In this document: positions 4,731 through 62,300 of the stretch, one piece after another
How the letters are laid out: each line of letters opens with the position of its first letter
Position numbering within the stretch: the stretch's first letter is position 1
Assembly (NCBI GenBank): GCA_049997795.1
Contig: JBEKVT010000001.1
Span: forward strand, 243,751-307,750
DNA: 64,000 nucleotides
Direction of reading: 5' to 3'
From: Minisyncoccia bacterium
Lineage (GTDB): Bacteria > Patescibacteriota > Minisyncoccia > Phycocordibacterales > PALSA-1337
Position numbers and translations under genes: made by a program
Notes under the pieces: generated by a model
Database searches by the model: none
Told to the model about the DNA's origin: nothing
Seen by the model: only the letters and a program-made list of their open reading frames with translations

Positions 4731-5612
4731 ATGAGCACTCTCATCCTCGACGGCCGGGCCGTGCGTGAGGCCCGCACTCCGGAATTGATCGAACGGGTCA
4801 AGCAACTTTCACGCCAACCAACCCTGGCCATCATCCAAGTCGGCGACCTGCCAGATTCGACCGCCTTCATCAAGGCTAAAAGCGCCTTTGCCGTGAAGAT
4901 TGGCGCCAAAGTCAAACACATCCATCTGCCGGAAAGCATTTTCCGGCACGAATTAGTCGATGAGGTCCGTGAATGCAACGCTGACGCGGATATTCAAGGG
5001 ATCATCGTTCAATTGCCCCTGCCGATCGCCATCGATCAGGATGCTGTTATAGAGGCTGTCGATTCAAAAAAAGACGCCGACGGCCTTACGTCATTCAATG
5101 TGAAGCGCTGGCTCGAAGGCAGGGAAGACGCCGTCATCCCCGCCACGACGCGCGGGGTGAAAGAGCTTCTTGAATATTACAAGCTCGGCCTTTTCGGCAA
5201 GCACGTCGTCGTGGTCGGCCGTTCGATGCTCGTCGGCAAGCCGCTCGCCGCCTTCTGTCTGAATGAGAACGCCAGCGTGACAGTTTGCCACTCGAAGACG
5301 GTCGATCTCCCCGAGGAGACCAGGAAAGCCGACGTACTCATCGTGGCCGCGGGGAAGTCGAAGCTCATAACGGCCGATCATGTGAGAGAAGGCACGGTCG
5401 TCATCGATGTCGGCATCAACACGGTCAAGGGAGAAAAGCTTGAAGATGAGATCTCCGGACGGAAGCTCGTCGGCGACGTCGATTTCGAAGCGGTGAAAGA
5501 CATCGCTTCGGCCATCACGCCCGTACCTGGCGGCGTCGGCCCGATGACTGTCTTGGCCCTCTTCGAGAATCTCGCCGATTTGTGCCTTGAGCCGAAAGAC
5601 GATATCATTTAG
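4731..5612 (+). CDS. folD: bifunctional methylenetetrahydrofolate dehydrogenase / methenyl-THF cyclohydrolase
   Basis: MSTLILDGRAV... 293 aa; FolD family layout with NAD(P)-binding GRSMLVGKPLA and PGGVGPMT motifs. Confidence 0.9.
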   Translation: MSTLILDGRAVREARTPELIERVKQLSRQPTLAIIQVGDLPDSTAFIKAKSAFAVKIGAKVKHIHLPESIFRHELVDEVRECNADADIQGIIVQLPLPIAIDQDAVIEAVDSKKDADGLTSFNVKRWLEGREDAVIPATTRGVKELLEYYKLGLFGKHVVVVGRSMLVGKPLAAFCLNENASVTVCHSKTVDLPEETRKADVLIVAAGKSKLITADHVREGTVVIDVGINTVKGEKLEDEISGRKLVGDVDFEAVKDIASAITPVPGGVGPMTVLALFENLADLCLEPKDDII

Positions 5613-7841: not shown

Positions 7842-8453
7842 TCAGTGGGCTTTCTCGGCGACATGGTTCAGGTCGACGAAGCCCTTGAAATAATCCCGCA
7901 GATTCAGCGTCCACACGACCTTGTCGAACCCGGGTAGCTCCGCGGCGATCGCGTCGAGCTCGACGATCTGGTTCCTGGCGACCTCGACCAAGATCCGGAT
8001 TATGTCGTGCTCGACATAGCACTCGTAGGCGTAGTACATGTAATCGAGCCTCTGGACTCCGTCGAAGAACAAGGCTTCATTGCGCCGGTGTTCGGCGAGG
8101 TCGGTCATGACGAGCCTGGCTTCCTCGGGAAAGCAGGCCGGGTTCCTCAGGCAGAATTGTAGGAGGAAGCTGCGCTCCAGCTCCCTCCATACCGCCACGC
8201 CGAGCGGTCCGCACAATCTCCTGAAGACCAGATATTCCTTCAGGTCGTCCTCGTCCGTCTTGATGTCGGCCGGCAGATCGATGATTCTGATGCCTTCCGG
8301 TTCGTCGTGATGGCTTACGCAGCGAGAGAGCAGGAGCTCGTCCAGCCGGCAGTATGGTCGCATCCCGATCATCATATAGTCGAAGAGGAAACAGACCGAG
8401 CACCGATGCTCATGTCCGTTCTGGTGCCGCATCCGATCCCCGAATGGCTTCAT
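7842..8453 (-). CDS. HD-domain 5'-deoxynucleotidase (YfbR-like dNMP phosphohydrolase)
   Basis: HQNGHEH ... SHHDEPEGIRIIDLPADIK matches the YfbR H...HDasEvltgDLPtpvK metal-binding motifs. The ORF extends to 8582 but the Met at 8453 gives about 203 aa, the YfbR size. Confidence 0.6.
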   Translation of the reverse strand: MKPFGDRMRHQNGHEHRCSVCFLFDYMMIGMRPYCRLDELLLSRCVSHHDEPEGIRIIDLPADIKTDEDDLKEYLVFRRLCGPLGVAVWRELERSFLLQFCLRNPACFPEEARLVMTDLAEHRRNEALFFDGVQRLDYMYYAYECYVEHDIIRILVEVARNQIVELDAIAAELPGFDKVVWTLNLRDYFKGFVDLNHVAEKAH

Positions 8454-8641
8454 ATACCTGCCAAAACGGATTATCCGTTCTTGGCCGTGTTGTAGCTTCC
8501 GCCAGACGTAGAAAGGGTGGCCCAACACGCCGGACGCGCCGATCCTGCAGTGACAGTTGTTGCCGTTACTGGTGCCGTTCATAGAGCTGTTCCTTCGGTT
8601 TAAGGTTGGATTTTCGTTGAACTGTCGTCCGTTGACGAAGA

Positions 8642-9163
8642 CTAGCCCATAGCCCCGGGATTTTCAACTGCGTATGTCAACAGCAGAGACCCGCCATCCG
8701 TGCGCGTGAGCTCTGCCAGCTTTAGCTTATAGTCCAGGCCTTCCTTGAAAAGCCCGATGCCGTCGCCGAAGACGACCGGCTCGATGGTGAGATAGAGCCT
8801 GTCGACCAGGCCGGACTTCATGAACATGGTGTATATGGCAGAACCGCCGCAGATGGCGACCTCTTTGAACCCGCGCGATTCCAATTCCCGCAGAAGCTCG
8901 GCTGGCGGCTTAGCTGTGATCTCAACGCCGGCTGGTAAATCAGCGATCGGACCGGGCGAGTAAACGACATTCAAACGGTCCTTGAGCGGTTTCCCGCCGA
9001 AGGTCTGCCAGGTATTCAAACCCATCACACAGATTCCCGCGCGCTTCGAGACCTCAACGAAACGCTTCTTATCCTCCTTACTGGTCCATGTCGTCGAAGG
9101 CACGGACGGATCTTTGGCGATGTATCCGTCGGCCGACATGGCGGCGATGATGAAGCACTTCAT
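8642..9163 (-). CDS. dihydrofolate reductase (FolA / RibD-C fold)
   Basis: MKCFIIAAMSADGYIAKDPSVPSTTWTSKEDKKRFVEVSKRAGICVMGLNTWQTF parallels the FolA N-terminus (MISLIAALAVDRVIG...W...[20 protein letters not shown]); 174 aa from the Met at 9163. Confidence 0.7.
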   Translation of the reverse strand: MKCFIIAAMSADGYIAKDPSVPSTTWTSKEDKKRFVEVSKRAGICVMGLNTWQTFGGKPLKDRLNVVYSPGPIADLPAGVEITAKPPAELLRELESRGFKEVAICGGSAIYTMFMKSGLVDRLYLTIEPVVFGDGIGLFKEGLDYKLKLAELTRTDGGSLLLTYAVENPGAMG

Positions 9164-9183
9164 GGTATTTTTCTGGGACGCGC

Positions 9184-9816
9184 TTACTGGACCTTGTATT
9201 TCTCCTTCAATTGCTTGATGTCGCCCCTGATGATGAGATCGACTTCCTCTTTCTCCTCCATGAGCACCCCTTCGATTATGTCTTTCTGGTGATATTTGCT
9301 CTTGCGCGGCAGGACTTCGTTCTTCAGCTCCTCGAAAGTGACCTGGCACAGGCGCTCGCCAGGATAGAGCCGGACCGCCTGCGATCTGGTGTTGTTGCGG
9401 ATAGGGAGGACCAGCTGGCCGTCGTAGCCGGCGTCGATAAGGCCCGTGAGATCGAGCGACAGGCCCTTGCGGTTGGTCGAAGAGCGCGGATATAAGACGC
9501 CCATCAGGTTATTCGGCATCCTGATCGATTCCAAGGTCGAGACCAGGATGAATTCTCCCGGCAAAAGGTCGAAATATTGGCCCTGTTCGAGCTCCACCAC
9601 GTCGAAATACTCGTTATTGCGCTTGTCGAAATGGGTGATGTCCAGCGGTTCCCGGCCCCGCGGCGTCATGTGCCACATCTTGGGGATGAGGAAGGTGTAG
9701 CCGAGACGCAGGTCGACCGAATGTTCCTGGAGCTGGAACAGGTCGATGCCGGGCTTGAAGACCAAGGCGCCCGACCTCACTAGCTCGACGATCTGTTGTT
9801 TAGTAATGATGGCCAC
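9184..9816 (-). CDS. dcd: dCTP deaminase family protein (Dcd; possibly bifunctional dCTP deaminase/dUTPase) with C-terminal Lys/Glu-rich extension
   Basis: VDLRLG, SSTNRKGLSL and IDAGYDG motifs of the Dcd/dUTPase trimer fold; about 25 extra charged residues at the C-terminus. Confidence 0.75.
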   Translation of the reverse strand: MAIITKQQIVELVRSGALVFKPGIDLFQLQEHSVDLRLGYTFLIPKMWHMTPRGREPLDITHFDKRNNEYFDVVELEQGQYFDLLPGEFILVSTLESIRMPNNLMGVLYPRSSTNRKGLSLDLTGLIDAGYDGQLVLPIRNNTRSQAVRLYPGERLCQVTFEELKNEVLPRKSKYHQKDIIEGVLMEEKEEVDLIIRGDIKQLKEKYKVQ

Positions 9817-9838
9817 GGTCTGGTCTCGATGCCGATGG

Positions 9839-10675
9839 TTAAAGGATAAGCTTAAGCCCCTTGATGGGGTCCATAGGATTATACTGCCTCGAAAGGTTTT
9901 CCACTATCTCCTCCAAGAGTTTCGGGTCCTTATTCTCGGCACGGTCGAACGCGCCCGGCGGCAATTCGAGCCTGATCGTTGGGTGGTCGTTCTTCCGGCC
10001 CATGAGCTCCCGGGCGCCGTCGTAATGTGTGTCGTATATGTGGGCGTTCGAAATGGAATGCGAGTAGATCCCCGGTTTGACGCCGAGCTTCTGGGCCAGG
10101 AAGCATTGGAGCAGGGCGAAGCCGGCCACGTCGGCCCGACAGCCCAACATGATGTCGTTCGATCGGACGATGTTATGGAGATGCAAACGGCCGCCGACGA
10201 TGTTGACCGTGAATGTGTACGGGCACGGCACGTTCTTCTTCTTGATCGCCGATAATCCGTCGCTTCCCGGATCCCAGGTGACAACTACGGCTTGGCGCGA
10301 GCTCGGCTCGTTCTTCAAAAGCTCTATGAGGAGCCCCAGCTGGTCGCGGCCGAAATGCTTGCGCCAGCGGTAACCGTAGGCCACCGTCACGACGTCGCCC
10401 GGATTGGTGAATTCATCCCAGATATGGGTGTATTCCCGGAGGAAATCCTCTGGTTTCCGCGCCCCGGAGACGAACCACATCTGTTCGGCCACGAACATCT
10501 TGATGGGAGTCTTGATGAGAGTGAGCAGGGGAAAGCCGTCCTTCTCGAGATCGAGCTGGAAATGGACGCCGACCAGGGCCCTCGTCTCATGGCCGGTGCG
10601 TTCGGAGAATTCGACGATGCCGTTCTCCATGATGTCCTTCACCATATCGCGGTAGATCTCGTCGAACTTGGTCAT
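9839..10675 (-). CDS. thyA: thymidylate synthase-family enzyme (ThyA-like) with Asn-to-Asp substitution at the pyrimidine-specificity position
   Basis: Catalytic Cys in VPCPYTF (PCH region), RSNDIMLG (E. coli RSCDVFLG), then CRADVAGFALL where TS has PFNIASYALL: Asp182 (codon 10130-10132) replaces the invariant Asn. C-terminal HIYDTH matches THLY. Confidence 0.8.
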   Translation of the reverse strand: MTKFDEIYRDMVKDIMENGIVEFSERTGHETRALVGVHFQLDLEKDGFPLLTLIKTPIKMFVAEQMWFVSGARKPEDFLREYTHIWDEFTNPGDVVTVAYGYRWRKHFGRDQLGLLIELLKNEPSSRQAVVVTWDPGSDGLSAIKKKNVPCPYTFTVNIVGGRLHLHNIVRSNDIMLGCRADVAGFALLQCFLAQKLGVKPGIYSHSISNAHIYDTHYDGARELMGRKNDHPTIRLELPPGAFDRAENKDPKLLEEIVENLSRQYNPMDPIKGLKLIL

Positions 10676-10683
10676 GGCCGGCT

Positions 10684-10697
10684 AATTATATATAATT
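10684..10697. promoter_or_regulatory. perfect 14-bp AT palindrome AATTATATATAATT in the 37-nt divergent intergenic region (overlapping -10-like TATAAT boxes in both directions; possible operator)
   Basis: Read directly; it lies between the divergently transcribed thyA-like operon (-) and the dCMP deaminase-tmk-glyA operon (+). Confidence 0.4.
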
Positions 10698-10712
10698 GCG
10701 GAGATATTCAAA

Positions 10713-11189
10713 GTGAACAACCGTTACCCATACATCCCGGAAGGAAGGACGATCAAGTACGTGCCTGAGAGCGATCCATTCATGCGCGAAGCTAAACGGA
10801 CGCGCGACACGGATTCGACCGACCTCATCCATTCGACCGGCGCCGTCGTGGTTCTGAACGGCGAGCCCATCGGTCGGGCGGCCAATCAGTCTGCCCTTAA
10901 GAACAGGAAGCTTCTTGAGCTGCATAAAAAAGGCCTTTGCGTCAGGCGCTTGCTCGGGATCCCGTCCGGACGGAAGTACTGGCTCTGTCCAGGGTGTTCT
11001 TCGTGCAGGCATCACGCGGAATCCAGAGCCGTCAAAGATGCCGCATCACACCATCCTTCGATTGCCGGTGCTGATCTTTACCTCTATGGCCATTGGTGGT
11101 GCTGTAAGCCGTGTTGGGATGCTATGATCGAGGCAGGGATCAGGGACGTATACCTAGTCGAGGGAGCAGACGAATTATTCAAGAGATAA
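10713..11189 (+). CDS. dCMP deaminase (cytidine/deoxycytidylate deaminase zinc-binding fold)
   Basis: HAE zinc-ligand motif (CRHHAESRAV) and PCxxC (CCKPCWDAM); 158 aa. Confidence 0.8.
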   Translation: MNNRYPYIPEGRTIKYVPESDPFMREAKRTRDTDSTDLIHSTGAVVVLNGEPIGRAANQSALKNRKLLELHKKGLCVRRLLGIPSGRKYWLCPGCSSCRHHAESRAVKDAASHHPSIAGADLYLYGHWWCCKPCWDAMIEAGIRDVYLVEGADELFKR

Positions 11190-11201
11190 GCATACAAGAA
11201 C

Positions 11202-11837
11202 ATGAAACCGAAATTCATCGCCATCGAAGGAGGAGAAGGCTCCGGCAAGTCGACGCTCGTCGCCGCCCTGAAGGAAGAGCTCGGCGATTCCGTCTTCTTT
11301 ACCCGTGAGCCCGGCGGCTCGCCTTATGCCGAGGTGATACGGGAGACCACCCTGAAGAATCCGCTCGCCAAGACGGCTCCAGCCGATACTACCCTCTGTC
11401 TCATGTTCGCTGCCCGGTTCGACAACGCCGTGAATGCCATCGAGCCGGCCTTGAAGAAAGGCCTGTCTGTCATCGCCGATCGTTTCGACGGCTCGTCTTA
11501 TGCCTACAACGTTTCGGCCCAATCTGATTACGCCCTCGAGCCGCTCTTCTGGGACCTGAGGAGGCGACTTTCCATCATCCCGGACCTCTATGTTTGGATA
11601 GACGTCGATCCGAAAGAAGGGATGCGGCGAACCCGTTCCCGCAACGATTCGTCGGTCGCCAGAGGGAAGTACGACCACTTCGATGACCGGGAGATCGCAT
11701 TCCACGAGAAGGTCAGGGCGGGATATGCGAAGCTAATGGCCAAGGTCCCGCATGCCGTGATCGACGCCAACCGGCCGCTTGAAGAGGTTAAGCGCGACTT
11801 CATCGCCGAGGTCAAGAGACAGCTGGGAATGAGCTGA
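11202..11837 (+). CDS. tmk: thymidylate kinase
   Basis: MKPKFIAIEGGEGSGKST P-loop, DRF motif (VIADRFDGSSYAY), lid region; 211 aa. Confidence 0.9.
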   Translation: MKPKFIAIEGGEGSGKSTLVAALKEELGDSVFFTREPGGSPYAEVIRETTLKNPLAKTAPADTTLCLMFAARFDNAVNAIEPALKKGLSVIADRFDGSSYAYNVSAQSDYALEPLFWDLRRRLSIIPDLYVWIDVDPKEGMRRTRSRNDSSVARGKYDHFDDREIAFHEKVRAGYAKLMAKVPHAVIDANRPLEEVKRDFIAEVKRQLGMS

Positions 11838-11900
11838 TCTCGAGAGCAGATCCTTTGTCCGCCCGCATCCTCATGGGAGCAGGCGGACTTTTTTACCGGT

Positions 11901-13127
11901 ATGCTACAATTTATAACCGTGAAAGACGTCCAAATCCGAAAACTGATCGAAGCCGAGAAGAAAAGGCAGAAAAAGGTCGTCAACCTGATCGCCTCGGAGA
12001 ACTACGTCTCGAAGGACGTGCTCGAGGCCTTGGGTTCGGAGCTTACGAATAAGTATGCCGAAGGCTACCCCGGTCGGCGCTATTACGGCGGCAATGAGAT
12101 CGTCGACAAGATCGAACGCCTCTGCGCCGAGCGCGCCCTCAAGCTCTTCGGGCTCGACCGGAACGAGTGGCACGTGAACGTCCAACCGCTCTCCGGCTCG
12201 CCGGCCAACCTGGCCGTCTACGTGGCCCTTGTGCCTCAGGGCGGTAAGATCATGGGCATGTCGCTCGACCACGGCGGCCACCTGACGCACGGCCACAAGG
12301 TCTCGTTCACCGGCAAATCATGGACGCAGGTCCCTTACGGCATCGACCCGATCACGGAGACCGTGAATTACGACCAGCTCCTCGAGAAAGCCATGAACGA
12401 GAAGCCGGACATCCTGGTGGCCGGCTACACGGCTTACCCACGGGCGATTGACTGGGCCAGGCTGCGCAACGTGGCTGATGCCGCGAACGCCATCTTCATG
12501 GTGGACATGTCCCATGTCGCGGGCTTGGTGGCCGGCGGCGCATACCCGTCGCCCTTTCCGCACGCCGACATCGTCACCACTACCACGCACAAGACTCTGC
12601 GCGGTCCGCGCGCGGCCATGATCTTCGCCAAGAAAGACGCCCGCGAGCTCGACAAGAAGATAGACAAGGCCGTCTTCCCAGGCCTCCAAGGAGGGCCTCA
12701 CATGAATCAAATTGCCGCGGTAGCCGTGGCCTTGAAGGAGGCGTCCACTTCGTCGTTCCGGAGATACGCGGCCCAAGTGGTGAAGAACGCCAGAGCCTTG
12801 GCCGACGAGCTCAAGGGCCGCGGCTGGCGGCTCATATCCGGCGGCACCGATTCGCATCTCATATTGATGGACACCTGGATGAGCGACCTCGTCAACGAGA
12901 AAGGCGCTGGCGGCGTCCCCGGCAAGGAGGGGAGCGAGCGCCTAGAGAAGGAAGGCATCGTCGTCAATAAGAATGCCATACCGTTCGACAGCCGGCCGCC
13001 GGCCGATCCGTCCGGCATCAGGCTCGGCACGGCGGCGGAGACGACCCGCGGCAGGAAAGAGAAGGATTTCAGGAAGATAGCCGACAGGATTGACAAGATC
13101 TTGAAGAAGCGCAATAAGCGGTCCTGA
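11901..13127 (+). CDS. glyA: serine hydroxymethyltransferase
   Basis: LIASENYVS, YAEGYPGRRYYGG, and the PLP-lysine region TTTTHKTLRGPR; 408 aa. Confidence 0.95.
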   Translation: MLQFITVKDVQIRKLIEAEKKRQKKVVNLIASENYVSKDVLEALGSELTNKYAEGYPGRRYYGGNEIVDKIERLCAERALKLFGLDRNEWHVNVQPLSGSPANLAVYVALVPQGGKIMGMSLDHGGHLTHGHKVSFTGKSWTQVPYGIDPITETVNYDQLLEKAMNEKPDILVAGYTAYPRAIDWARLRNVADAANAIFMVDMSHVAGLVAGGAYPSPFPHADIVTTTTHKTLRGPRAAMIFAKKDARELDKKIDKAVFPGLQGGPHMNQIAAVAVALKEASTSSFRRYAAQVVKNARALADELKGRGWRLISGGTDSHLILMDTWMSDLVNEKGAGGVPGKEGSERLEKEGIVVNKNAIPFDSRPPADPSGIRLGTAAETTRGRKEKDFRKIADRIDKILKKRNKRS

Positions 13128-15422: not shown

Positions 15423-18400
15423 ATGGCCGATTCACCTGATAGTCTGAAGAAATCCTCTCACGCCGAAAGGGAAGAGCGCATCCTGAAGTTCTGGAAAGAC
15501 AAGGATATCTTCAAGAAGAGCCTCGATAAAGAAGCGCCGAAAGGCGAGTTCGTTTTCTACGAGGGTCCGCCGACGGCCAACGGCCGCCCGGGCATCCATC
15601 ACCTCGAGGCCCGCGCCTTCAAAGACGTTATCCCGCGCTTCCGGACCATGCGCGGCTATCATGTGCGCAGAAAGGGCGGCTGGGACACTCACGGCCTGCC
15701 CGTCGAGCTGCAGGTTGAGAAGGATCTTGGTTTGAAGTCCAAGAAGGAGATCGAGAGCTACGGCATCGAGAAGTTCAACGACAAGTGCAAGGAGAGCGTC
15801 TGGACCTACGTGCGCGAGTGGGAGGATTTCACCAACCGCATGGGGTACTGGGTTGACCTCAAGGACCCATATATTACCTACAAGCCGGAGTACATGGAAT
15901 CGCTCTGGAACATAGTGAAGACCGTCGACAAGAAAGGCCTGCTCTACAAGGACTACAAAGTCGTGCCCTGGTGCCCACGATGTGGTACGGCACTGTCGTC
16001 TCATGAGTTAGCCCAAGGGTATGCGGATGTGAAGGATCTGGCGGTGACGGTGAAGTTCAAATTGAAAGCCGGCCAAAAGATCGGCGATTTTACGACCGAC
16101 GATAAGACTTACATCCTAGCTTGGACGACAACGCCATGGACCTTGCCGGGAAACGTCGGATTGGCGGTCGGTAAAAATATTATCTACAACAGGATTGAAT
16201 TAAATGGCGAACAGTTAATTGCTTCACATGACGCGATAGTTAGGTTGGATATGTTTAAAACCAATCCGAGTTATAAGGTAATTGAAAAAGGAATATCAGG
16301 ATTTAAATTGGTTGGTTTGGAATACGAACCCCTCTACCCGTTCTTAAAAGACAGTATCTCCGGTGCCGAGAAGGAAAAGCTACCGAACGCTTACAAGGTC
16401 TATCTGGCCGACTTCGTCACGACAGAAGACGGCACGGGCGTCGTGCACACGGCAGTCATGTACGGCCAGGACGACTTCGAACTAGGCGTGAAGGTCGGTC
16501 TGCCGAAATATCATCTGGTGAACGAAGACGGGACATTCAAGAAGGAAGCCGGCTTCCTGGCGGGGAAGTTCGTGAAAGACGAAGCGACCGACGTCGAGAT
16601 CATCAAGGACCTGGCACACCGCGGCCTCCTGTTCCACAAAGAGAAGCACGAGCACAGCTATCCTTTCTGCTGGCGATGCCAGACGCCGCTCATCTACTTC
16701 GCCCGCGATTCTTGGTATATCGGGATGTCGAGGCTGCGCGACAAGCTGGTCAAGGAGAACGAGAGCATCCATTGGGAGCCGGAACACATCAAGGAGGGCC
16801 GCTTCGGCGAATGGCTCCGCGAGGTCAAGGACTGGGCCTTTTCCCGCGAGCGCTATTGGGGCACACCTCTCCCCGTATGGGTCTGCGACAGGTGCGGCGC
16901 GAAGAAGGTGGCCGGCTCCGTCGCCGACGTCTCGAGGAAGCCCCGCAACACCTACTATGTCATGCGCCATGGCGAGGCCGGGAATAACGCCAAGGCAGTC
17001 CTGAATTATTCTGAGAGGGACCTGCATCCCCTGACGGAGAAAGGCCGTGGGCAGGTGAGGAAGTCGGCAGAGGGGCTGAAGGGCGCCGGAATAGACGCGA
17101 TATATTGCTCGCCGTTCATCCGCGCCAGGGAGACGGCGCAGCTCGCGGCCGAGGCCATAGGACTGAAGAAGGAAGATGTCAAGATCGAAGAACGCCTGCG
17201 CGAATTCAACATGGGGGATCTCGACGGGGAGCCGATCTCCAGGCTGACGACGGAATTCCCCGACGAAGTCAGGTTCGACAGGTGGCCGGAGGGAGGGGAG
17301 AGCTACGCCGACATCAAAAAGCGCATGGGGAGCTTCCTCTATGAGATGGAAGAGAAACATCAGGGCAAGACCATCCTCATCGTCTCTCACGAGACGCCGC
17401 TCTTCCTCTTAATATCCGCGGCCGAAGGCCTGGATCGCAAGCAGACTCTCGCCATGAAGCCGCAGCACCGCTTCATCAGTAACGCCGAAGTGCGCAAGCT
17501 CGAATTCACGCTCCTGCCGCACGACGCCGAATATGAGCTGGATCTCCACCGCCCTTATATAGACGAGGTAAGGCTTCCTTGTGCCTGCGGCGGAGAGATG
17601 AGGCGCGTCAAGGAAGTCATGGACGTCTGGTTCGATTCCGGGGCGATGCCTTTTGCTCAAGATCACTACCCATTCGAAGGCAAGAGAGGCGGACTTCTCG
17701 GCCGGTTCGGCGGTCAAAAGCTCGCCTACCCGGCTGATTTCATCTCCGAGGCCATCGATCAGACGCGCGGCTGGTTCTACACCTTGCATGCGGTGGGTGT
17801 CCTTATGGGCCGCGGCAAGGCCTTCAAGAACGTCATCTGCCTCGGTCTCATCCTCGACGCCGAAGGCAAGAAGATGTCCAAGTCCGTAGGCAACGTCATA
17901 GATCCAGCGGTCATGATGGACAGATACGGCGCGGATGCCCTGCGCTTCTGGATGTATTCGATCAATCAGCCGGGTGAATCCAAGAACTTCGAAGAGAAGA
18001 CCGTGGACGAGGTCGTCAAGAAGGTCTTCAACCTGATCTCCAATACGACGGTCTTCTACAAGATGTACGCAAAAGCCGACGTTGAACCGTCTTCGGACTC
18101 TGAAAACGTCCTTGATCGCTGGATCGTCGCGCGGCTGAATCAGTTAGTCGCTGATACCACGAAAAATCTGGATGATTACATTCTGTTGGAACCGGCGCGC
18201 GCCATCAGGGATTTCGCCGCAGACCTCTCGCAGTGGTATCTGCGCCGCTCGCGCGGACGATTCAAGGGAGAGGGAAGCGACAAACAAGCCGCACTGGCCA
18301 CGACCAAATACGTCCTACTCACCCTGGCTAAGGTAATGGCACCGTTCACGCCGTTCTTCGCGGAGGAGCTTTACCGGGATGTCGGCGGCGAGAAAGAGAG

Positions 18401-18896
18401 CGTGCATCTCGAGGATTGGCCGGAGGCAGGTTTAATCGACAAAAATGTTTTGATTGGAATGAGTTTTGTCCGTTCATTCGCATCGATGGCCTTAATGCAA
18501 CGCATGGAAAATAAAATCCCAGTGCGTCAACCGCTGTTAAAAATAAAACATAAAGGTAAAATCCCTGATTTTTGGAATAAGGAATTGGAACAAATCTTGA
18601 TGGACGAGGTGAATGTCAAAGCGGTTGTCTTCGACGGTAAGATGAGCCAAGACGATCCTCCGGTTAAATTAGACACGACCATCACCCCGGAGCTCAAGGA
18701 AGAAGGTGGCCTGCGAGAGCTCCTGCGCAGGATCCAGGACTTGAGGAAAGAAAAAGGATTGTCGGTCAATGACCCGGCGATCTTGACGGCCACCGGTGAT
18801 TTGAAGGACCTCATTTCCAAGCACGAAAGAGAGATAAAGGCCGCCACTCACTTGACGGAGATAAGATTCGGCGATTCGTTCGAGCTCAAGACGTAA
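15423..18896 (+). CDS. ileS: isoleucyl-tRNA synthetase carrying an in-frame inserted histidine-phosphatase (PGAM-like) domain
   Basis: HIGH-like PPTANGRPGIHH, KMSKS (GKKMSKSVGN), editing domain, C-terminal extension. Residues about 505-715 (nt about 16935-17570) form a complete RHGE histidine phosphatase domain (YYVMRHGEAGNN ... IRARETAQ ... ILIVSHETPL) between CDRCG and CACGG. Confidence 0.9.
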   Translation: MADSPDSLKKSSHAEREERILKFWKDKDIFKKSLDKEAPKGEFVFYEGPPTANGRPGIHHLEARAFKDVIPRFRTMRGYHVRRKGGWDTHGLPVELQVEKDLGLKSKKEIESYGIEKFNDKCKESVWTYVREWEDFTNRMGYWVDLKDPYITYKPEYMESLWNIVKTVDKKGLLYKDYKVVPWCPRCGTALSSHELAQGYADVKDLAVTVKFKLKAGQKIGDFTTDDKTYILAWTTTPWTLPGNVGLAVGKNIIYNRIELNGEQLIASHDAIVRLDMFKTNPSYKVIEKGISGFKLVGLEYEPLYPFLKDSISGAEKEKLPNAYKVYLADFVTTEDGTGVVHTAVMYGQDDFELGVKVGLPKYHLVNEDGTFKKEAGFLAGKFVKDEATDVEIIKDLAHRGLLFHKEKHEHSYPFCWRCQTPLIYFARDSWYIGMSRLRDKLVKENESIHWEPEHIKEGRFGEWLREVKDWAFSRERYWGTPLPVWVCDRCGAKKVAGSVADVSRKPRNTYYVMRHGEAGNNAKAVLNYSERDLHPLTEKGRGQVRKSAEGLKGAGIDAIYCSPFIRARETAQLAAEAIGLKKEDVKIEERLREFNMGDLDGEPISRLTTEFPDEVRFDRWPEGGESYADIKKRMGSFLYEMEEKHQGKTILIVSHETPLFLLISAAEGLDRKQTLAMKPQHRFISNAEVRKLEFTLLPHDAEYELDLHRPYIDEVRLPCACGGEMRRVKEVMDVWFDSGAMPFAQDHYPFEGKRGGLLGRFGGQKLAYPADFISEAIDQTRGWFYTLHAVGVLMGRGKAFKNVICLGLILDAEGKKMSKSVGNVIDPAVMMDRYGADALRFWMYSINQPGESKNFEEKTVDEVVKKVFNLISNTTVFYKMYAKADVEPSSDSENVLDRWIVARLNQLVADTTKNLDDYILLEPARAIRDFAADLSQWYLRRSRGRFKGEGSDKQAALATTKYVLLTLAKVMAPFTPFFAEELYRDVGGEKESVHLEDWPEAGLIDKNVLIGMSFVRSFASMALMQRMENKIPVRQPLLKIKHKGKIPDFWNKELEQILMDEVNVKAVVFDGKMSQDDPPVKLDTTITPELKEEGGLRELLRRIQDLRKEKGLSVNDPAILTATGDLKDLISKHEREIKAATHLTEIRFGDSFELKT

Positions 18897-45074: not shown

Positions 45075-45851
45075 TATAGGCACATCGGAATGATTACAAA
45101 CATTAATCGCCAACATACGCGGCCGTAGCCACACCCCTTTTAACTAGAGGCGTGATGCGGAGCCGCCCAATGAAGCGGTTTTTCGTTTTTACGGGACGAC
45201 TGAAGCTTGAAAATCTCATACCTCAAACAAGTATGTAAGGTCCGTCGGGCTCGGGTCGAGCCGGGCGGACAAAGCAATGTAGGTAATTAACACAAGCGGT
45301 TTTTAGAGTTCCCGACGGGAATTCTAAGGGCGTATGGTGGATGCCTTGGCTTCATGGAGGCGATGAAGGACGCGGCGTGGCGGCGATATGCTTCGGGGAG
45401 GTGCCGAGCAACCTTTGATCCGAAGATTTCCGAATGGGGAAACCCCGTGATGTGAACCATCATGACCTATGTAGTTACTCTATATAGGAGCGTACCCTGG
45501 GAAGTAAAACATTTCAGTACCAGGAGGAATAAAAACAAACTATGCATTCCGTCAGTAGCGGCGAGCGAACGCGGAGGAGACTAAACTCAACCTAAATCGT
45601 ACGGAGCCAGCCGAAAGGCTCGTGCCGTGCGATTTAGGTTGGGAGTTGCAAGGCGGAGACGTGCCGTTTATCGGCAGAGAAGTTACAAAATCTTTCGTTA
45701 GTCGAATCATCTGGAAAGATGAGCCCCAGCAGGTGACAGCCCTGTAGATGAAAATAAAAGATCTTCTTTGTTTCCGTTCTTAAGTACCCCGGGACACGAG
45801 AAGCTCGGGGGAATCCGCCGGAACTAACCGGCAAGTCTAAATACTCCAGAA

Positions 45852-45891
<40 letters not shown>

Positions 45892-46626
45892 CAGCCCGGA
45901 AGGGCGGTGAAATAGACCTGAAACCATATGCCTACAAGGAGTCGGAGCGGGCAGGACTTCGCGTCCGGAAAGTCGGAAGCGGGGCCCTGTCCGTCACGGC
46001 GTGCCTATTGAAGAATGAGCCAACGAGTTCAAGCAAGCAGCTCTGCTAAGGGCGAGAGCCCGGAGCAACAGGGAAACCGAGTCTGAATAGGGCGTTCGTT
46101 GTTTGCTTGAGACCCGAAGCCGGATGAGCTTGCCACGCGCAGGGTGAACCTTTCCGAAAGGAAAGGGGAAGCCCGAACCGGTGAGCCGTGCAAAACTCTC
46201 GGATGACGTGTGGTAAGGAGTGATAAGCTAATCGAATTCGGTAATAGCTGGTTCTCTCCGAAAGAACTTTTGGGTTCGCGTCGCGTTTACCCTTGCGGGG
46301 TAGAGCACTGGAAGATCTCGACAGGCCGAAAGGCCGCGAGACCTATCAAACTCCGAATACGCAAGGTCACTGCGCGGCAGTTAGACTGTGGGGGCTAAGC
46401 TCCATTGGTCAAAAGGGAAACAGCCCATGATCTCAATTTAAGGTCCCTAAATCGACGTTAAGTGCGCTTAAGGTGGTGATATCTCTCCGACAATGAGGAT
46501 GTAGGCTTAGAAGCAGCCATCATTCAAAAAAAGCGTAACAGCTTACTCATCGAGAGGTGTCGCGCCGCAGATAATCGGGGCTCAAACGTCGTACCGAAAC
46601 TGAGGGCTTGTGAACTTCATTGAGGA

Positions 46627-47073
46627 AAATTTTGTTCTTTTAGCCGGTTCCCGCGTAACTAGTCGGCATGGGCGTGCCCGCTGTCTCCCAAGTCAGCAAC
46701 GCTGATCGCTGAATAACGGGAACCGGTGTCGATTTCGCGTCGGAAGGCGGCTCGAATGCGTCGAGCGCTCGAAAGCGGTGGATTAACCTAATCCCAGGTA
46801 AGGAGCCTGGACTAGCTCACTATATCTCTGTGAACCACTGCTTTAAAGCATCGTTCGTTTTCGAGTCTGCCTTCCGACCGGATTTGGTGTCGGGGTGTGG
46901 CGTAGCCCGGTAGCGCGCTCGCTTTGTGGGGCAACAACGTATACCGTGTGTTAAGCACGGCGTGCTAGTGATGATGAGCCATAGATAGTAATCCCCATCT
47001 TGCGAGAAGTCGTCGGTTCAAATCCGACCACCCCGACCAAACTTTTTCTGGCATTTTTCAGGTAAAAATGCCT
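46627..47073 (+). other. intervening sequence (IVS) in 23S helix 45, closed by a 19-bp stem
   Basis: CTTGTGAACTTCATTGAGG (46608-46626) pairs with CCTCAATGAAGTTCGCAAG (47074-47092), one G-U. Flanking sequence aligns to E. coli 23S on either side of helix 45 (about nt 1170), the site of known Salmonella/Yersinia IVSs. Confidence 0.7.
46891..47039 (+). tRNA. tRNA-like element inside the 23S IVS, with a 72-nt insertion in the anticodon loop (possible anticodon UGU)
   Basis: Acceptor CGGGGTG/CACCCCG (7 Watson-Crick bp), U8, D-arm GCGT-AGCCCGGTA-GCGC (G18G19 present), anticodon stem CTCGC/GCGAG, 5-nt variable loop, T-arm GTCGG-TTCAAAT-CCGAC, discriminator A plus encoded CCA. Confidence 0.5.
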
Positions 47074-47786
47074 CCTCAATGAAGTTCGCAAGCGGTAGGA
47101 GAGTATTCGCATCGCCTTGAAGGTGAAGGGGTGACCCGCACTGGAGCGTTGCGAAGTAAGAATGTTGGCACAAGTAACCGCAATGCGGGCGAGAATCCCG
47201 CACGCCGAAAGACCAAGGTTTCCTTGGCAATGTATATCAGCCAAGGGTTAGTCGGTCCTAAGGGGATGGCGAACGCCGCACCCGATGGACACACGGTTAA
47301 TATTCCGTGACTTTCGCGAAGATCGATGGAGCGACGAGGGGCAGTATGCTGCGCGTATTATCGGATTTAACGTTCATGCTGTAAGGATGGGTCCCGGCAA
47401 ATCCGGATCCTGCTTTCGATGGCGAACCCGAGCGGAGTGAAAATGCCGCAAGGCAAATACAGCAAAGCGCCCCTTCAAGAAAAACTTCTAAGATCATCTT
47501 CGCGAGAACCGTACCGCAAACCGACACAGGTGGTCAGGTCGAGTAGACCAAGGCGAACGAGTGAGAGGTCTCCAAGGAACTCGGCAAAAAAGCAGCCGTA
47601 ACTTCGGAATAAGGCTTGCCCTTCGTTCAATCGAGGGGCCGCAGCTAAAGTATCTCTGGCAACTGTTTAACAAAAACACAGCTCCCTGCGAACTCGAAAG
47701 AGGATGTATAGGGGGTGACACTTGACCAATGCGAGAAGGTCAAATAACGACGGTGCGATCACATCAAGCTGATTGTTATAAGCCCT

Positions 47787-47826
<40 letters not shown>

Positions 47827-48452
47827 CAATTCCTTGTCGGGTAAGTTCCGACGCGTTGAATAGTGCAATGACTGGAGAACTGTCTCGGAGACTCGCTCGG
47901 TGAAAATACAATACCGGTGAAGATGCCGGTTACCTGCAGTTAGACGAAAAGACCCTAGAAGCTTTACTGTAACTTGATATTGACCATACGTGCTCCATGC
48001 GTAGCGTAGATGGGAGGATTTGAGGCGTTCCTTTCGGGGGGCGCTGATCCGTCGATGAAACACCATTCTTGGATTATGTATGTTCTAACCTCGGCGGCAT
48101 AAACGCCGGGAGACAGTATCTGGTGGACAGTTTTAGTGGGGCGCTATCCTCCTAAAAAGTAACGGAGGAGCCTATTAAGTTCAGCTAGGCGCGAATGGAA
48201 ACCGTGCCGATAGTGTATGGGCACAAGCTGGATTGACTGCGAGACGTACGTGTCGAGCAGATGCGAAAGCAGAGCCAAGTGAACCGACCGTGGGCGTTAG
48301 ACGCCGCGGAAGATTATCGGACAAAAGCTACTCTAGGGATAACAGGCTAGTTCCGCCTAAGAGTTCATATCGACGGCGGAGTTCGGCACCTCGATGTCGG
48401 CTCACCACATCCTGGGGGCGGAGAAGCTCCCAAAGGTTTGGCTGTTCGCCAA

Positions 48453-48496
<44 letters not shown>

Positions 48497-48826
48497 TGGT
48501 CTCCTATCTACTGCAGGCGTTGATGCTTGAGGGGAATTGACTCTAGTACGAGAGGACCGAGTTGAACGGACCGCTGGTCTACCTGCTGTCGTGCCAACGG
48601 CACCGCAGGGCAGCTATGTCCGGATCGGATAATCGCTGAAAGCATATAAGCGAGAAGCCGGCCCCAAGATGAGGCATCGTCAAGACCCGTGAGAGATGAT
48701 CACGTTGATAGGCGTTAGGTGTACGCGCCGCAAGGCGTTGAGCCGGGACGTACTAATCCGTCGATCTCGTCGGGAACCCTGAAAATCGCTGTGATAATCA
48801 CCACATTGCTATGATCAAACTTGTTT

Positions 48827-48947
48827 GGACTGGAACGGTATGTGTTGCTTTCATTGAAAATGATCTTCACCGGACTTCGTGGTGACGCAATACATGTCTT
48901 GCCCAGCGGGTCATTTTCAATTCAAACAACACATACCGTTCCAGTCC
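48827..48947 (+). repeat. extended inverted repeat (21-bp perfect stem plus extension) in the 23S-5S spacer
   Basis: GGACTGGAACGGTATGTGTTG (48827-48847) vs CAACACATACCGTTCCAGTCC (48927-48947); arms extend a further 11 nt imperfectly; the loop carries its own hairpin. Confidence 0.6.
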
Positions 48948-48979
48948 AGAGGCATGAGCATATCGCATTGAATCTTGCG

Positions 48980-49090
48980 TTCTGGTGGTTCAGCGCTGTG
49001 GCACCACCCGTTCTCATTCCGAACACGGCAGTGAAACGCAGTTGCGGCGATGATAGTCCCATTGGGGCGAAAGTAGCTTGCCGCCAGAAC
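48980..49090 (+). rRNA. rrf: 5S ribosomal RNA
   Basis: TTCTGGTGGTTCAGC ... CCGAACACGGCAGTGAAACG ... CTTGCCGCCAGAAC; helix I pairing of the termini; conserved loop C/helix III. Confidence 0.8.
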
Positions 49091-57137: not shown

Positions 57138-58946
57138 ATGGTTATTAGCAAACTCTACATTCAGAATTATCGTTGCTTTGGCGAGGAGCCCGCTGTTATT
57201 GATTTTGCAAAAACGAGCTTGATGGCATTTGTGGGTAGCAACAATGCCGGTAAGAGTACTGCATTAAGGGTAATAGAGATTTTACTTGGTGATAAATGGC
57301 CGTCGAGTCAGTTTTCAGAAGATGACTTTTACAAGAAAGACTTTGGGAGAAAAATTGTAATGGCATGTGAATTCTCAGAGAACATAGTTATTCCAGAATC
57401 ACGATCAGCAGGTGGACGTACAAAAAGCATTAAAGGTCTTATTATTGAAGTTGCATATCTATCTAGTGGGCATGGTCAAAATTCCACCGAGGTGGAATTT
57501 CATCTGATTGAAACAATAAATGACTTCAGTGTTGCTGATTGGCAGATTGCATGTTATGGAACATCCGATAAGAAAATATATGTATCACAAGAAATTAGAA
57601 ATCATCTCCCGATTGCTATCACTATCCCTTTGATCAAGCTCCAATCAGAGCAGCCATCGAACAAATGGAGTGTTATTGGTAAGATGCTTCAGAAAGTCGA
57701 AAATGCCTTTAGTAATGATCAATCAAAGAAAACACGATTTGAAAGAGGTATTAGAAGGGTAATGAGTATACTCCGTGAGCCAGCTGAATTTGCAACACTT
57801 GAAAGAGATGTAACTACGTTCTGGAACGAGGTAAAACCCAACAATCTTTCAGGGACTGCTCTGCAGTTTTTGGATTATGATCCATGGCATTATTATCGGC
57901 AATTCCATCTAGCTATTACAAAGAATAAAGAAGACGTTCCACTAGAAACACTAGGAGAAGGAATTCAGCGTTTGGCTATCATCTCTCTTTATCGCGCATA
58001 CTTGAAAGCGCATAGCCGAAATCAAAGAGCCATCCTTCTTATTGAAGAACCGGAGAGTTATCTACATCCTCAGGCTCGAAGTATTGTTTACAAGATACTT
58101 AGAAAAGCAGTGGAAGGAACAGATATTGAAGGTCAGATTATTTATACTACTCACTCATCAGATTTTCTGAGTTGTGAATTCTTTCAAGAAATTGTTGTAT
58201 TCACTGAAACTTCAGATGGGTCTATAACAAGACAGGTAAATAAACTGAGAATGCAGAGCCAAACTGCTGCTCTAACCGGAATCGACCCGGCTACGCAAAT
58301 TGACCCCATGATTTATTATAGGCTTACGGAAATTGATACCTATGGCTTAAAAGATGCACTGTTTTCCGGACTTGCAGTTATAGTCGAAGGTCCAACTGAT
58401 TTTGAATTTTTAAAGGCCTTTGGAGGAACTGAAGAAAAACAAACTTCAATTGTGATTGCTGCAGGTAAGGCTGTTATACCTGCAATATATTCATTTCTAA
58501 CAGCATTCGGTGTCAGAACTGCCGTCTGTATAGATCAGGATAATGCAAACCCCGGTGAATCGAACGCTACCCTTGCATCGTTGATAAACGAACGCAGGAT
58601 TAATAACCTTTCCTTACGTACACGAGTATTTACCGAAGCAGAAATCAACTCTGTTCCTGCCGGGTCACTAACTGTTTTCAGAAACTTACTAGTTTTCGCA
58701 AGAGATATTGAGAATGTTTTAGATTCCAGAATCCCGAATTATCATACACTTACTACTTCTCTAAAATCACGTCTAAATTTAGGCAACAGCAAACCAAAAC
58801 TCATGTTCGCTCTGAAACTGTGTGCCGAAGGAAGAATTCCTTCCCTGACTTTATCTACTGAACAAAGAGCAGCCTTAGAAACTCTTACTGCGGAAATCAA
58901 TACTTTTTTGAACCAACGGATTTTACAGCCCGTGCTTATAGTTTAA
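57138..58946 (+). CDS. OLD-family ATP-dependent endonuclease (N-terminal ABC-type ATPase + C-terminal Toprim), class 1 stand-alone architecture
   Basis: Walker A GSNNAGKST (aa 33-41), ABC signature-like LGEGIQRLAII, Walker B/H-loop ILLIEEPESYLHPQ, Toprim Glu in LAVIVEGPTDFEFL and DxD in CIDQDNANPGE; 602 aa (P2 Old is 586 aa). Confidence 0.8.
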   Translation: MVISKLYIQNYRCFGEEPAVIDFAKTSLMAFVGSNNAGKSTALRVIEILLGDKWPSSQFSEDDFYKKDFGRKIVMACEFSENIVIPESRSAGGRTKSIKGLIIEVAYLSSGHGQNSTEVEFHLIETINDFSVADWQIACYGTSDKKIYVSQEIRNHLPIAITIPLIKLQSEQPSNKWSVIGKMLQKVENAFSNDQSKKTRFERGIRRVMSILREPAEFATLERDVTTFWNEVKPNNLSGTALQFLDYDPWHYYRQFHLAITKNKEDVPLETLGEGIQRLAIISLYRAYLKAHSRNQRAILLIEEPESYLHPQARSIVYKILRKAVEGTDIEGQIIYTTHSSDFLSCEFFQEIVVFTETSDGSITRQVNKLRMQSQTAALTGIDPATQIDPMIYYRLTEIDTYGLKDALFSGLAVIVEGPTDFEFLKAFGGTEEKQTSIVIAAGKAVIPAIYSFLTAFGVRTAVCIDQDNANPGESNATLASLINERRINNLSLRTRVFTEAEINSVPAGSLTVFRNLLVFARDIENVLDSRIPNYHTLTTSLKSRLNLGNSKPKLMFALKLCAEGRIPSLTLSTEQRAALETLTAEINTFLNQRILQPVLIV

Positions 58947-60558: not shown

Positions 60559-60809
60559 AGCTCTTACCTCTCATAACAAGCAAAACGCCTTGTTACCCGA
60601 GGCGGAACTTTGAAAGTCACATAAAGAGAATGTATTAAGCTTCTTCGAGGTCCTGCTAACCCGGGACGACGAGGAAAGTGCAAGTACACATATATTCAAA
60701 CAATGATTACGATGGATTCCGTAGATTCAACGGATCCGACCGAGCAGAGGATGGCGAAATTAAGATAGACGGTTAGCGCCTTCTATTTTGTTCCGTTCGC
60801 TTATAGTTA

Positions 60810-62300
<1,491 letters not shown>

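Follow-up and report, generated by a model that had tools for sequence, protein, structure and literature searches.

How is thymidylate (dTMP) made in bacteria whose thymidylate synthase (TS)-like enzyme carries an aspartate at the base-specificity position? This question is raised by a 64,000-nucleotide (nt) stretch of contig JBEKVT010000001.1 from a Minisyncoccia bacterium, referred to here as the window, in which a ThyA-family enzyme of 278 amino acids (aa) is encoded on the minus strand at 9839-10675 (PF00303, 178 bits) among genes of deoxypyrimidine and folate metabolism. All coordinates are positions within the window, and residues are numbered according to the window protein, with the Escherichia coli ThyA numbering in parentheses; the terms Asp177 and Asn177 refer to the latter. 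These bacteria probably make dTMP from a cytosine nucleotide that is methylated before it is deaminated, a route suggested by (i) the signature of phage deoxycytidylate (dCMP) methylases in the ThyA-family enzyme and (ii) the constant presence of an unusual deaminase gene next to it. The enzyme is predicted to be a dCMP C5-methyltransferase of the type found in Xanthomonas phage Xp12.

Active site of the ThyA-family enzyme

The protein matches PF00303 with 177.9 bits over residues 7-250 and retrieves 124 TS chains from the Protein Data Bank (PDB) at E ≤ 1e-3. The catalytic residues of the superfamily, namely, Cys151 (C146), Glu64 (E58), Arg171 (R166), and Asp174 (D169), are present and invariant across the 120 nearest homologues. 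The codon GAC at 10130-10132 (minus strand) specifies Asp182 at the position of N177, the base-specificity residue of E. coli ThyA; in canonical ThyA, this Asn forms hydrogen bonds with O4 and N3-H of uracil. This substitution had been noticed in an original prediction made from the DNA alone and is borne out by our residue map and by alignments to PDB entries; the same holds for the replacement of the His of the PCH motif, since Pro152 occupies the position of H147. In HMMER alignments to solved thymidylate synthases, RADVAGF lies over PFNIASY and PCP over PCH, and the region around RSND...RADVAGF is free of gaps. The alignment register used earlier is thus correct, and a wrong register can be ruled out. 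Third in the PDB ranking, above the other entries for the Lactobacillus casei TS, was 1njc, which has Asp at the N177 equivalent in the alignment and which we take to be the N229D mutant of that enzyme.

The catalytic Cys is part of the motif NVPCP (N148-V149-P150-C151-P152; codons at 10220-10234, minus strand), which is also found in the Xp12 enzyme; the corresponding segments are LAPCH in E. coli ThyA and DFMCT in the T4 dCMP hydroxymethylase. The remaining residue map comprises Asn148 (L143), Phe89 (W83), Ser172 (S167), Arg127/Gln128 (R126/R127), Asn210 (D205), and His212/Tyr214 (H207/Y209). The canonical His147/Leu143/Trp83 environment is absent and is replaced by Pro152, Asn148, and Phe89, which occupy the most discriminating positions after 177. 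The ThyA-like C terminus is retained, reading YNPMDPIKGLKLIL in the window enzyme and YDPHPGIKAPVAI in E. coli. In ThyA, this segment closes over the folate during hydride transfer.

Conservation and family placement

Asp177 was found in 120 of the 120 nearest homologues (69-97% identity) and at 80 of 80 loci from GTDB species across the Parcubacteria; the Asn177 of canonical ThyA was thus found in none of these 200 clade members. In the same homologue set, Asn143 and Phe83 were present in 100% of the sequences and Pro147 in 114 of 120. Relatives that keep Asn would have pointed to a sequencing error or a pseudogene; since Asp is invariant across the clade in a gene that is intact and strongly conserved, both explanations are excluded.

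To place the enzyme within its family, we searched 1.84 billion representative proteins and inspected the nearest 150 clusters (50% identity), of which 120 carry Asp177 and 26 carry Asn177. The first Asn177 cluster appeared at rank 65 with 145 bits. None of the 64 better-scoring clusters has Asn177; every full-length sequence among them carries Asp177, and a few fragments leave the position uncovered. The two groups differ most clearly at positions 177, 143, 83, and 147 and then at 144, 249, 138, and 97. In the MetaGPA study, 177 and 147 were the top two positions separating the TS homologues of cytosine-modified phage contigs from those of unmodified ones (PMC8670742), and the window enzyme carries both discriminators, Asp at 177 and Pro at 147. 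The top match among 50,697 phage records was the protein of phage Xp12 annotated as thymidylate synthase (35% identity, E = 4e-53), and IMG/VR contained no relative above 39% identity. We also calculated a neighbor-joining (NJ) tree, a crude one in which the distance correction failed for the most divergent pairs; the query fell among the Asp177 sequences, and bootstrap support was weak. Of 60 replicates, 43 contained the Parcubacteria group and none showed strict monophyly of the Asn177 sequences, among which two Asp177 sequences nest. Because this tree is crude, the placement rests on the score ranking and the signature positions. As judged from these comparisons, the Parcubacteria enzyme is a distinct cellular branch of the Asp177 clade, since its relatives among phages and in IMG/VR are only distantly identical. 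Close homologues of the window genes come from metagenome-assembled genomes (MAGs) with names such as Candidatus Taylorbacteria and Paceibacterota.

Predicted substrate and reaction

Three sets of residues bear on the substrate and the reaction. (i) Asp182 predicts recognition of a cytosine base, since Asp at this position goes with cytosine and Asn with uracil (PMC8670742 and PMC5175136). Asn-to-Asp mutants of the E. coli and L. casei TS turn into dCMP methylases, according to the work of Hardy and Nalivaika (1992) and Liu and Santi (1992) as cited in PMC8670742. The window enzyme has the Asp of these mutants (N177D in E. coli, N229D in L. casei) and, unlike them, adds L143N, H147P, W83F, and R127Q/H, which are fixed across the lineage. 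(ii) Ser172 and Arg127 predict a deoxyribose substrate. Ser167 and Arg126 are deoxyribose specific, whereas the CMP hydroxymethylases MilA and BcmA, which also have Asp at the base-specificity position, carry Ala and Lys and prefer ribose (PMC5175136); the window enzyme keeps Ser and Arg, and the Ala167/Lys126 signature is absent. (iii) The lack of hydroxymethylase marks predicts a methylase. The published hydroxymethylase signature consists of an Asp located three residues before the catalytic Cys (Cys-3) and a Ser or Thr located two residues before the catalytic Tyr (Tyr-2) (PMC6400193). The window enzyme has Asn148 and Val98 at these positions, and the Asn143 equivalent is found in 120 of 120 homologues. 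The sequence of T4 gp42 (PDB 1B5E and 6A9A) was checked directly for this comparison. It resembles the window enzyme in the Asp at the 177 equivalent (D179), the RSND motif, and a cytosine deoxynucleotide as the substrate, which in our enzyme is a prediction. It differs in having Asp145 at Cys-3, Ser94 at Tyr-2, Val in place of Trp83, no ThyA tail, and release of tetrahydrofolate (THF) (PMC6400193), as opposed to Asn, Val, Phe, a full tail, and a neighboring dihydrofolate reductase (DHFR) gene in the window.

The signatures, the ThyA-like C terminus, and the DHFR neighbor together predict a reductive dCMP methylase that would yield 5-methyl-dCMP and dihydrofolate (DHF). The closest characterized relatives point in the same direction: the Xp12 TS homologue and five metagenomic phage homologues made 5-methyl-deoxycytidine (5-methyl-dC) in vivo (bioRxiv 10.1101/2024.12.05.627091), and in Xp12 DNA all C is replaced by 5-methylcytosine (5mC). 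The Xp12 enzyme (QNN97214.1) shares with the window enzyme Asp177, Pro147, Asn143, Phe83, the NVPCP motif, and a ThyA-like length and C terminus. Xp12 encodes HAD, TS, dCMP deaminase, and DHFR consecutively, and the window TS gene likewise neighbors deaminase and DHFR genes. For the Xp12 system, a conversion of 5-methyl-dC nucleotides to thymidine nucleotides has been proposed (bioRxiv 10.1101/2024.12.05.627091). There are also differences. (i) The two enzymes are 35% identical, and position 127 is Arg in Xp12 (Gln or His here) and position 205 is His (Asn here). (ii) The Xp12 deaminase belongs to a different subfamily from the divergent window deaminase (E = 0.03). (iii) The putative deoxycytidine triphosphatase (dCTPase) here has the Dcd fold and is not of the MazG or HAD type. 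(iv) Unlike the phage gene, the gene described here is a conserved chromosomal core gene of a cellular lineage, located beside the genes for L11, NusG, ArgRS, and IleRS. We estimate the chances as roughly even that the protein is an Xp12-type deoxycytidylate C5-methyltransferase that was recruited as the housekeeping thymidylate enzyme of the Parcubacteria. The original prediction, according to which the enzyme could act on cytosine nucleotides by methylation or hydroxymethylation, is therefore supported by the Asp177/Pro147/Asn143/Phe83 clade and the Xp12 relative as far as cytosine and methylation are concerned, and not as far as hydroxymethylation is concerned.

Other members of the family that turned up in these searches differ from the window enzyme. 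P0251 (504 aa), retrieved in the search of representative proteins, has a TS domain with Lys126, Ala167, and Asp177, which is the MilA/BcmA CMP hydroxymethylase signature, fused to a LOG/"Lysine_decarbox" (SLOG) domain; it is possibly involved in nucleoside-antibiotic-type or base-releasing chemistry. P0241 has the same Lys/Ala/Asp signature. Two contigs associated with P0124 (L087 and L088) encode a 46%-identical Asp177 relative with Gln at 147 and Ala at 167. Its TS gene is overlapped by an upstream gene for a HIT/DcpS_C nucleotide hydrolase, another hydrolase partner of an Asp177 enzyme.

A conserved gene module

A scan of GTDB species genomes retrieved 228 relatives of the enzyme. We fetched 80 of these loci, which come from lineages designated Taylor-, Adler-, Kaiser-, Nomura-, Vogel-, Colwell-, and Liptonbacteria, and counted the genes within 8 kb of the TS gene. 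The deaminase gene, divergently oriented from the TS gene, was present at 79 of the 80 loci, the exception being truncated by a contig end. Genes for the Dcd-like protein were found at 77 loci, glyA at 66, the DHFR gene at 52, tmk at 39, folD at 36, and dut at about 35 to 40. The synteny of the window locus recurs in other species. No match to thyX was found in the flanks of the 80 loci (8-10 kb), and tblastn searches of the window with Thermotoga maritima ThyX and E. coli ThyA and Dut, made for thyX, a second ThyA, or Dut, returned only genes already known.

The window locus is flanked by the housekeeping genes for NusG, L11, ArgRS, and IleRS, and the G+C content of the module equals the window average (57%). 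Together with the synteny in other species and the lack of IMG/VR relatives above 39% identity, these features rule out a prophage or genomic island.

The nearest relatives outside the Parcubacteria clade are 41-53% identical and are located on short contigs. Some of these contigs show a faint match to a terminase family, HNH and helicase genes, and many small open reading frames (ORFs). Three such phage-like contigs (L005, L086, and L091) encode a member of the window deaminase family beside an Asp177 enzyme (E = 1e-9 to 1e-13). Fusions also occur, namely, of a deaminase with an Asp177 enzyme (P0138) and of a MazG-like PRA-PH domain with an Asp177 enzyme (P0164). Among the 11 best IMG/VR relatives, 10 have a deaminase gene within 6 kb.

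One of the surveyed loci (L002) contains an ORF of 246 aa (8230-8970 of that locus, minus strand) between tmk and dut, without a Pfam match, which by eye is MazG-like (EEGAELLEA...ELVDVIANL) and has CxxC pairs. Since it occurs at only 3 of the 80 loci, it was rejected as a member of the module.

The deaminase partner

The deaminase (158 aa, GTG start; 10713-11189, plus strand) is a member of PF00383, with 37.6 bits and the HxE and CxxC zinc-site motifs. In the orthologue alignment, the catalytic H101-x-E103 and C131-x-x-C134 are invariant, as is a second Cys cluster formed by C76, C92, and C95, and the protein carries a WCCKPCW motif of its own. Used as a single sequence, it had no PDB match with an E value below 0.85. 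The profile of 39 orthologues retrieved dCMP deaminases first (4p9c, 1.2e-8), with 2hvv among the top entries and 2w4l and 1vq2 lower. A scan of viral sequences with the deaminase profile found two relatives with no TS gene nearby.

We consider the protein a divergent relative of the dCMP deaminases and propose that its substrate is a 5-methyl-dC nucleotide and its product a thymidine nucleotide. A precedent exists in phages, in which deaminases encoded in cis have been proposed to make thymidine nucleotides from 5-methyl-dC nucleotides, bypassing dUMP-dependent TS (bioRxiv 10.1101/2024.12.05.627091). The window deaminase resembles both the 5mC-selective phage deaminases of the mSCD-B5 type and classical dCMP deaminases (T4 Cd, Streptococcus mutans, and human DCTD) in its HxE/CxxC zinc site, and it shares with the mSCD-B5 type the location in cis with an Asp177 enzyme. 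It differs from all of them in being very divergent, with its own motif and the extra Cys cluster. The deaminase had originally been taken as an argument for ordinary dTMP synthesis. It is no such argument, because a deaminase in cis is typical of phage Asp177 enzymes and because the two genes are paired in 79 of 80 genomes.

A Dcd-like protein without the catalytic glutamate

The gene next to that of the ThyA-family enzyme encodes a Dcd-fold protein of 210 aa (9184-9816, minus strand; PF22769). It matches the DCD fold over its full length, and its score for TIGR02274 is 110.5 bits, above the cut-off of 92.8. The equivalents of Ser111, Arg115, and Asp128 are kept. However, the position of the catalytic Glu (E138 in E. 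coli) is occupied by Pro138 (codon 9403-9405), so that the window protein reads VLPIRN where solved Dcds have LE, and this Pro was found in 76 of 76 orthologues. Glu138 of dCTP deaminase is essential for deamination. In the PDB alignment, the chain set 1xs4/1xs6/2j4q has Ala at this position; these entries, as well as 2j4h, are presumably E138 mutants. The C-terminal tail of about 35 aa (9184-9290) is rich in Lys and Glu and conserved, with Gly198 and Lys204 invariant in 39 orthologues. A homologue with the same Pro and the same Lys/Glu tail is encoded on the phage-like contig L091 (6131-6616 of that contig; E = 2e-24). A scan of viral sequences with the profile of the Dcd-like protein retrieved chiefly ordinary dUTPases or Dcd, one with Glu.

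The description as a dcd homolog with an unusual Lys/Glu tail thus holds for the tail, and the identity as a dCTP deaminase does not stand, given the Glu-to-Pro replacement. Because the catalytic Glu is replaced, the protein is predicted to bind a nucleotide resembling dCTP and to be unable to deaminate it. Compared with Dcd and bifunctional DCD-DUT enzymes, it shares the full-length fold and the three residues mentioned above; it differs in having Pro in place of Glu138, an additional tail, and no dUTPase motif-5 C terminus. A function as dUTPase appears unlikely, since a separate canonical Dut is encoded in the module of about 35 to 40 of the 80 genomes. Most likely, the protein is a nondeaminating dCTP-binding enzyme that acts as a dCTP-to-dCMP pyrophosphatase.

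Proposed pathway

The core of the pathway that we propose is the methylation of dCMP to 5-methyl-dCMP by the Asp177 enzyme, followed by deamination to dTMP; we would put its chances at about one half. The individual steps would be as follows. (i) The Dcd-like protein would hydrolyze dCTP to dCMP and thus be the counterpart of the MazG-like dCTPases encoded beside phage Asp177 enzymes; this is the weakest step. (ii) The Asp177 enzyme would convert dCMP and 5,10-methylene-THF to 5-methyl-dCMP and DHF, as suggested by its signature and its Xp12 relative. (iii) The divergent deaminase would convert 5-methyl-dCMP to dTMP, for which the obligate pairing and the precedent in phages speak; since the one characterized phage enzyme prefers triphosphates, this step may take place at another phosphorylation level. 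(iv) Tmk (211 aa; 11202-11837, plus strand; TIGR00041, 128 bits with a cut-off of 83) would phosphorylate dTMP to dTDP. (v) The DHFR-like protein of the DHFR_1/RibD_C type (173 aa; 8642-9163, minus strand; PF00186, 52 bits, and PF01872, 57 bits) and the serine hydroxymethyltransferase GlyA (408 aa; 11901-13127, plus strand; PF00464, 527 bits) would return DHF to THF and then to 5,10-methylene-THF, which GlyA would regenerate. The methylene-THF dehydrogenase/cyclohydrolase FolD (approximately 4731-5612, plus strand; PF02882 and PF00763), which is loosely linked to the module, would join this folate recycling. Genes for folA from bacteria of the candidate phyla radiation (CPR) complement an E. 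coli ΔfolA strain (PMC11974145). From the active-site signature, the Asp177 clade, the loss of Glu in the Dcd-like protein, the gene module, and its phage-like relatives, we deduce what each enzyme would use and make, in which order and at which phosphorylation level methylation and deamination would proceed, and the dCTPase role of the Dcd-like protein.

A number of observations weigh against this pathway. (i) The substrate specificity is read from residues and from a relative that is only 35% identical. (ii) The window enzyme clears the cut-off of TIGR03284, a model for thymidylate synthase (122.3 bits, cut-off 108.35), and it stays below that of NF002497 (142 versus 327) and those of the other PRK01827 models. 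(iii) The majority of its catalytic and folate-binding residues are ThyA-like. (iv) Dut, which converts dUTP to dUMP, is encoded in the module of many genomes and fits the ordinary route, and an enzyme of the dCMP deaminase family could equally supply dUMP. (v) The kinship of the deaminase to that of Xp12 is only distant (E = 0.03), and the one characterized 5mC-selective phage deaminase acts on triphosphates (bioRxiv 10.1101/2024.12.05.627091). (vi) We found no precedent in the literature for a dCTPase with the trimeric fold.

Alternative explanations

Several of these observations would be accounted for by ordinary thymidylate synthesis, the alternative that survives best, though we consider it unlikely. 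Here, the enzyme would methylate dUMP to dTMP despite Asp182, which might, for instance, be protonated; the deaminase, in this case a plain dCMP deaminase, and Dut would supply dUMP, and the locus would be a compact canonical dTMP cycle. Every other gene of the module, namely, tmk, glyA, the DHFR gene, folD, and, in many genomes, dut, corresponds to a need of the canonical pathway, the TIGR03284 cut-off is cleared, and the CPR literature takes the gene as thyA. In addition, the enzyme has the fold of canonical ThyA (EC 2.1.1.45) and keeps the equivalents of Cys, Glu58, Tyr94, Arg166, Ser167, Asp169, His207, and Tyr209, the C-terminal lid, and the coupling to DHFR. Nevertheless, this alternative leaves unexplained why the deaminase family is common to phage-like contigs with Asp177 enzymes. 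Positions 177, 147, 143, and 83 have all taken on the residues of the cytosine-specific clade, in a joint change that shows little or no variation within the lineage. The dCTP route through Dcd is broken by the Glu-to-Pro replacement in 76 of 76 orthologues. To our knowledge, no natural Asp177 enzyme is a dUMP methylase, and none was found in our searches. Finally, the Asn-to-Asp replacement switches ThyA towards dCMP in the mutants cited in PMC8670742.

A second alternative retains cytosine methylation and adds a second fate of 5-methyl-dCMP, namely, phosphorylation to 5-methyl-dCTP and incorporation into DNA, with the Dcd-like protein depleting dCTP and a part of the pool being deaminated to thymidine nucleotides. 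We regard it as improbable. The module does mirror the toolkit of Xp12 and other phages, comprising an Asp177 enzyme, a deaminase, DHFR, and a putative dCTPase; hydrolysis of dCTP is the classic exclusion step for a full replacement of cytosine; and the characterized phage deaminase of this kind works at the triphosphate level (bioRxiv 10.1101/2024.12.05.627091). Yet the kinase of the module is an equivalog-level dTMP kinase, which suggests, as a weak argument, that dTMP is the product handed on. The G+C content of 57% in the window and, as given in the names of related MAGs, of 43-58% is unlike that expected from a sustained unrepaired decay of 5mC to T, which is also weak evidence. A cellular genome fully substituted with 5mC is without precedent, and our literature search found no report of unusual 5mC in CPR DNA. 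In its strong form, in which the chromosomal C of module-carrying Parcubacteria is mostly or wholly 5mC, as in Xp12, a pre-replicative global base substitution would be seen for the first time in cellular organisms; the prospect of this is slim.

The weakest alternative, that the enzyme makes 5-hydroxymethyl-dCMP for a modified-nucleotide pathway as T4 gp42 does, is suggested by the Asp at 177 and the RSND motif common to both and is rendered very improbable by the absent hydroxymethylase signature (Asn148 and Val98; PMC6400193), the ThyA-like tail that gp42 lacks, the methylase activity of the nearest characterized relative (Xp12), which shares the NVPCP motif, and the co-located DHFR, since hydroxymethylases release THF and not DHF.

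Implications

De novo synthesis of thymidylate in cells is attributed to ThyA and ThyX, both of which methylate dUMP. Asp177 enzymes and the idea of methylation followed by deamination are already known for phages. In the literature that we searched, neither an Asp177 TS in CPR bacteria nor a cellular lineage using such an enzyme as "thyA" nor a CPR "dcd" without the catalytic Glu was described. If the methylation of dCMP followed by deamination is confirmed, a number of consequences would follow. (i) It would be a third logic for dTMP synthesis in a large bacterial radiation, so far only proposed for phages that replace cytosine by 5mC, and a phage-type nucleotide modification module would be at work as a cellular housekeeping pathway. 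(ii) The annotations "thyA," "dcd," and "dCMP deaminase," as well as metabolic reconstructions, would need to be changed in at least hundreds of Parcubacteria (Paceibacterota) species, given the 228 GTDB matches. (iii) An internal explanation would become available for the folA, glyA, and folD genes, which are widespread in CPR bacteria and were recently interpreted as a folate "public good" (PMC11974145). (iv) The Dcd-fold proteins would gain a new functional class that does not deaminate. (v) The testable question would arise of whether 5-methyl-dC nucleotides find their way into the DNA of these bacteria.

Gene organization and other features of the window

The layout described originally, with two divergent gene strings on either side of a 37-nt spacer and folD upstream, is confirmed by the profile matches and the sequence. 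The spacer (10676-10712) extends from the TS start (CAT at 10673-10675) to the deaminase GTG at 10713, which is preceded by a GGAG ribosome-binding site within the spacer. The start of the DHFR-like protein that matches its orthologues is MKCFII at 9163; the ORF as listed extends to 9349.

The spacer holds a perfect 14-nt palindrome, AATTATATATAATT (10684-10697), which contains TATAAT read on either strand. A sigma-70-like site (TGGTCA-16-TATAAT, 10669-10696, plus strand) was the single such site found and belongs to the plus-strand operon. The palindrome may be a shared -10 element or an operator of both operons.

The last gene of the minus-strand string is an accessory one, an ORF of 246 aa with an H-x-H...HD...D motif (7842-8582, minus strand) that had been labelled a YfbR-like HD 5'-deoxynucleotidase. 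This label rests on the motif only, because the ORF has no Pfam or NCBIfam match even at E ≤ 10, its BLAST comparison with E. coli YfbR gave E = 1.9, and a profile search of the PDB returned chance matches only. Nor is the ORF a conserved member of the module: one homologue (52% identity) occupies the same position in locus L073, none was found at the other 79 loci, and the gene is thus near the module in 2 of 81 genomes.

Further features were noted elsewhere in the window. The isoleucyl-tRNA synthetase (1157 aa; 15423-18896, plus strand) contains an internal histidine phosphatase (phosphoglycerate mutase-like) domain with an RHG motif; the same PF00300 insertion was called in the orthologue at locus L002. 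The 23S rRNA match (45311-49089) spans 3466 nt of sequence for a model of 2925 nt, corresponding to about 540 additional nt, and includes a tRNA-model match at 46891-47036; a 5S gene follows the 23S gene. The 16S gene (60803-62297) is unlinked to the 23S gene, from which it is separated by about 12 kb in the downstream direction; both are on the same strand. Between 56000 and 62000, the G+C content drops to 38-49%, compared with 57% for the window, and this stretch contains an ORF (57138-58946, plus strand) for an OLD-family nuclease with an AAA_15/AAA_21 ATPase and a TOPRIM domain. It looks like a small defense island just upstream of the 16S gene.

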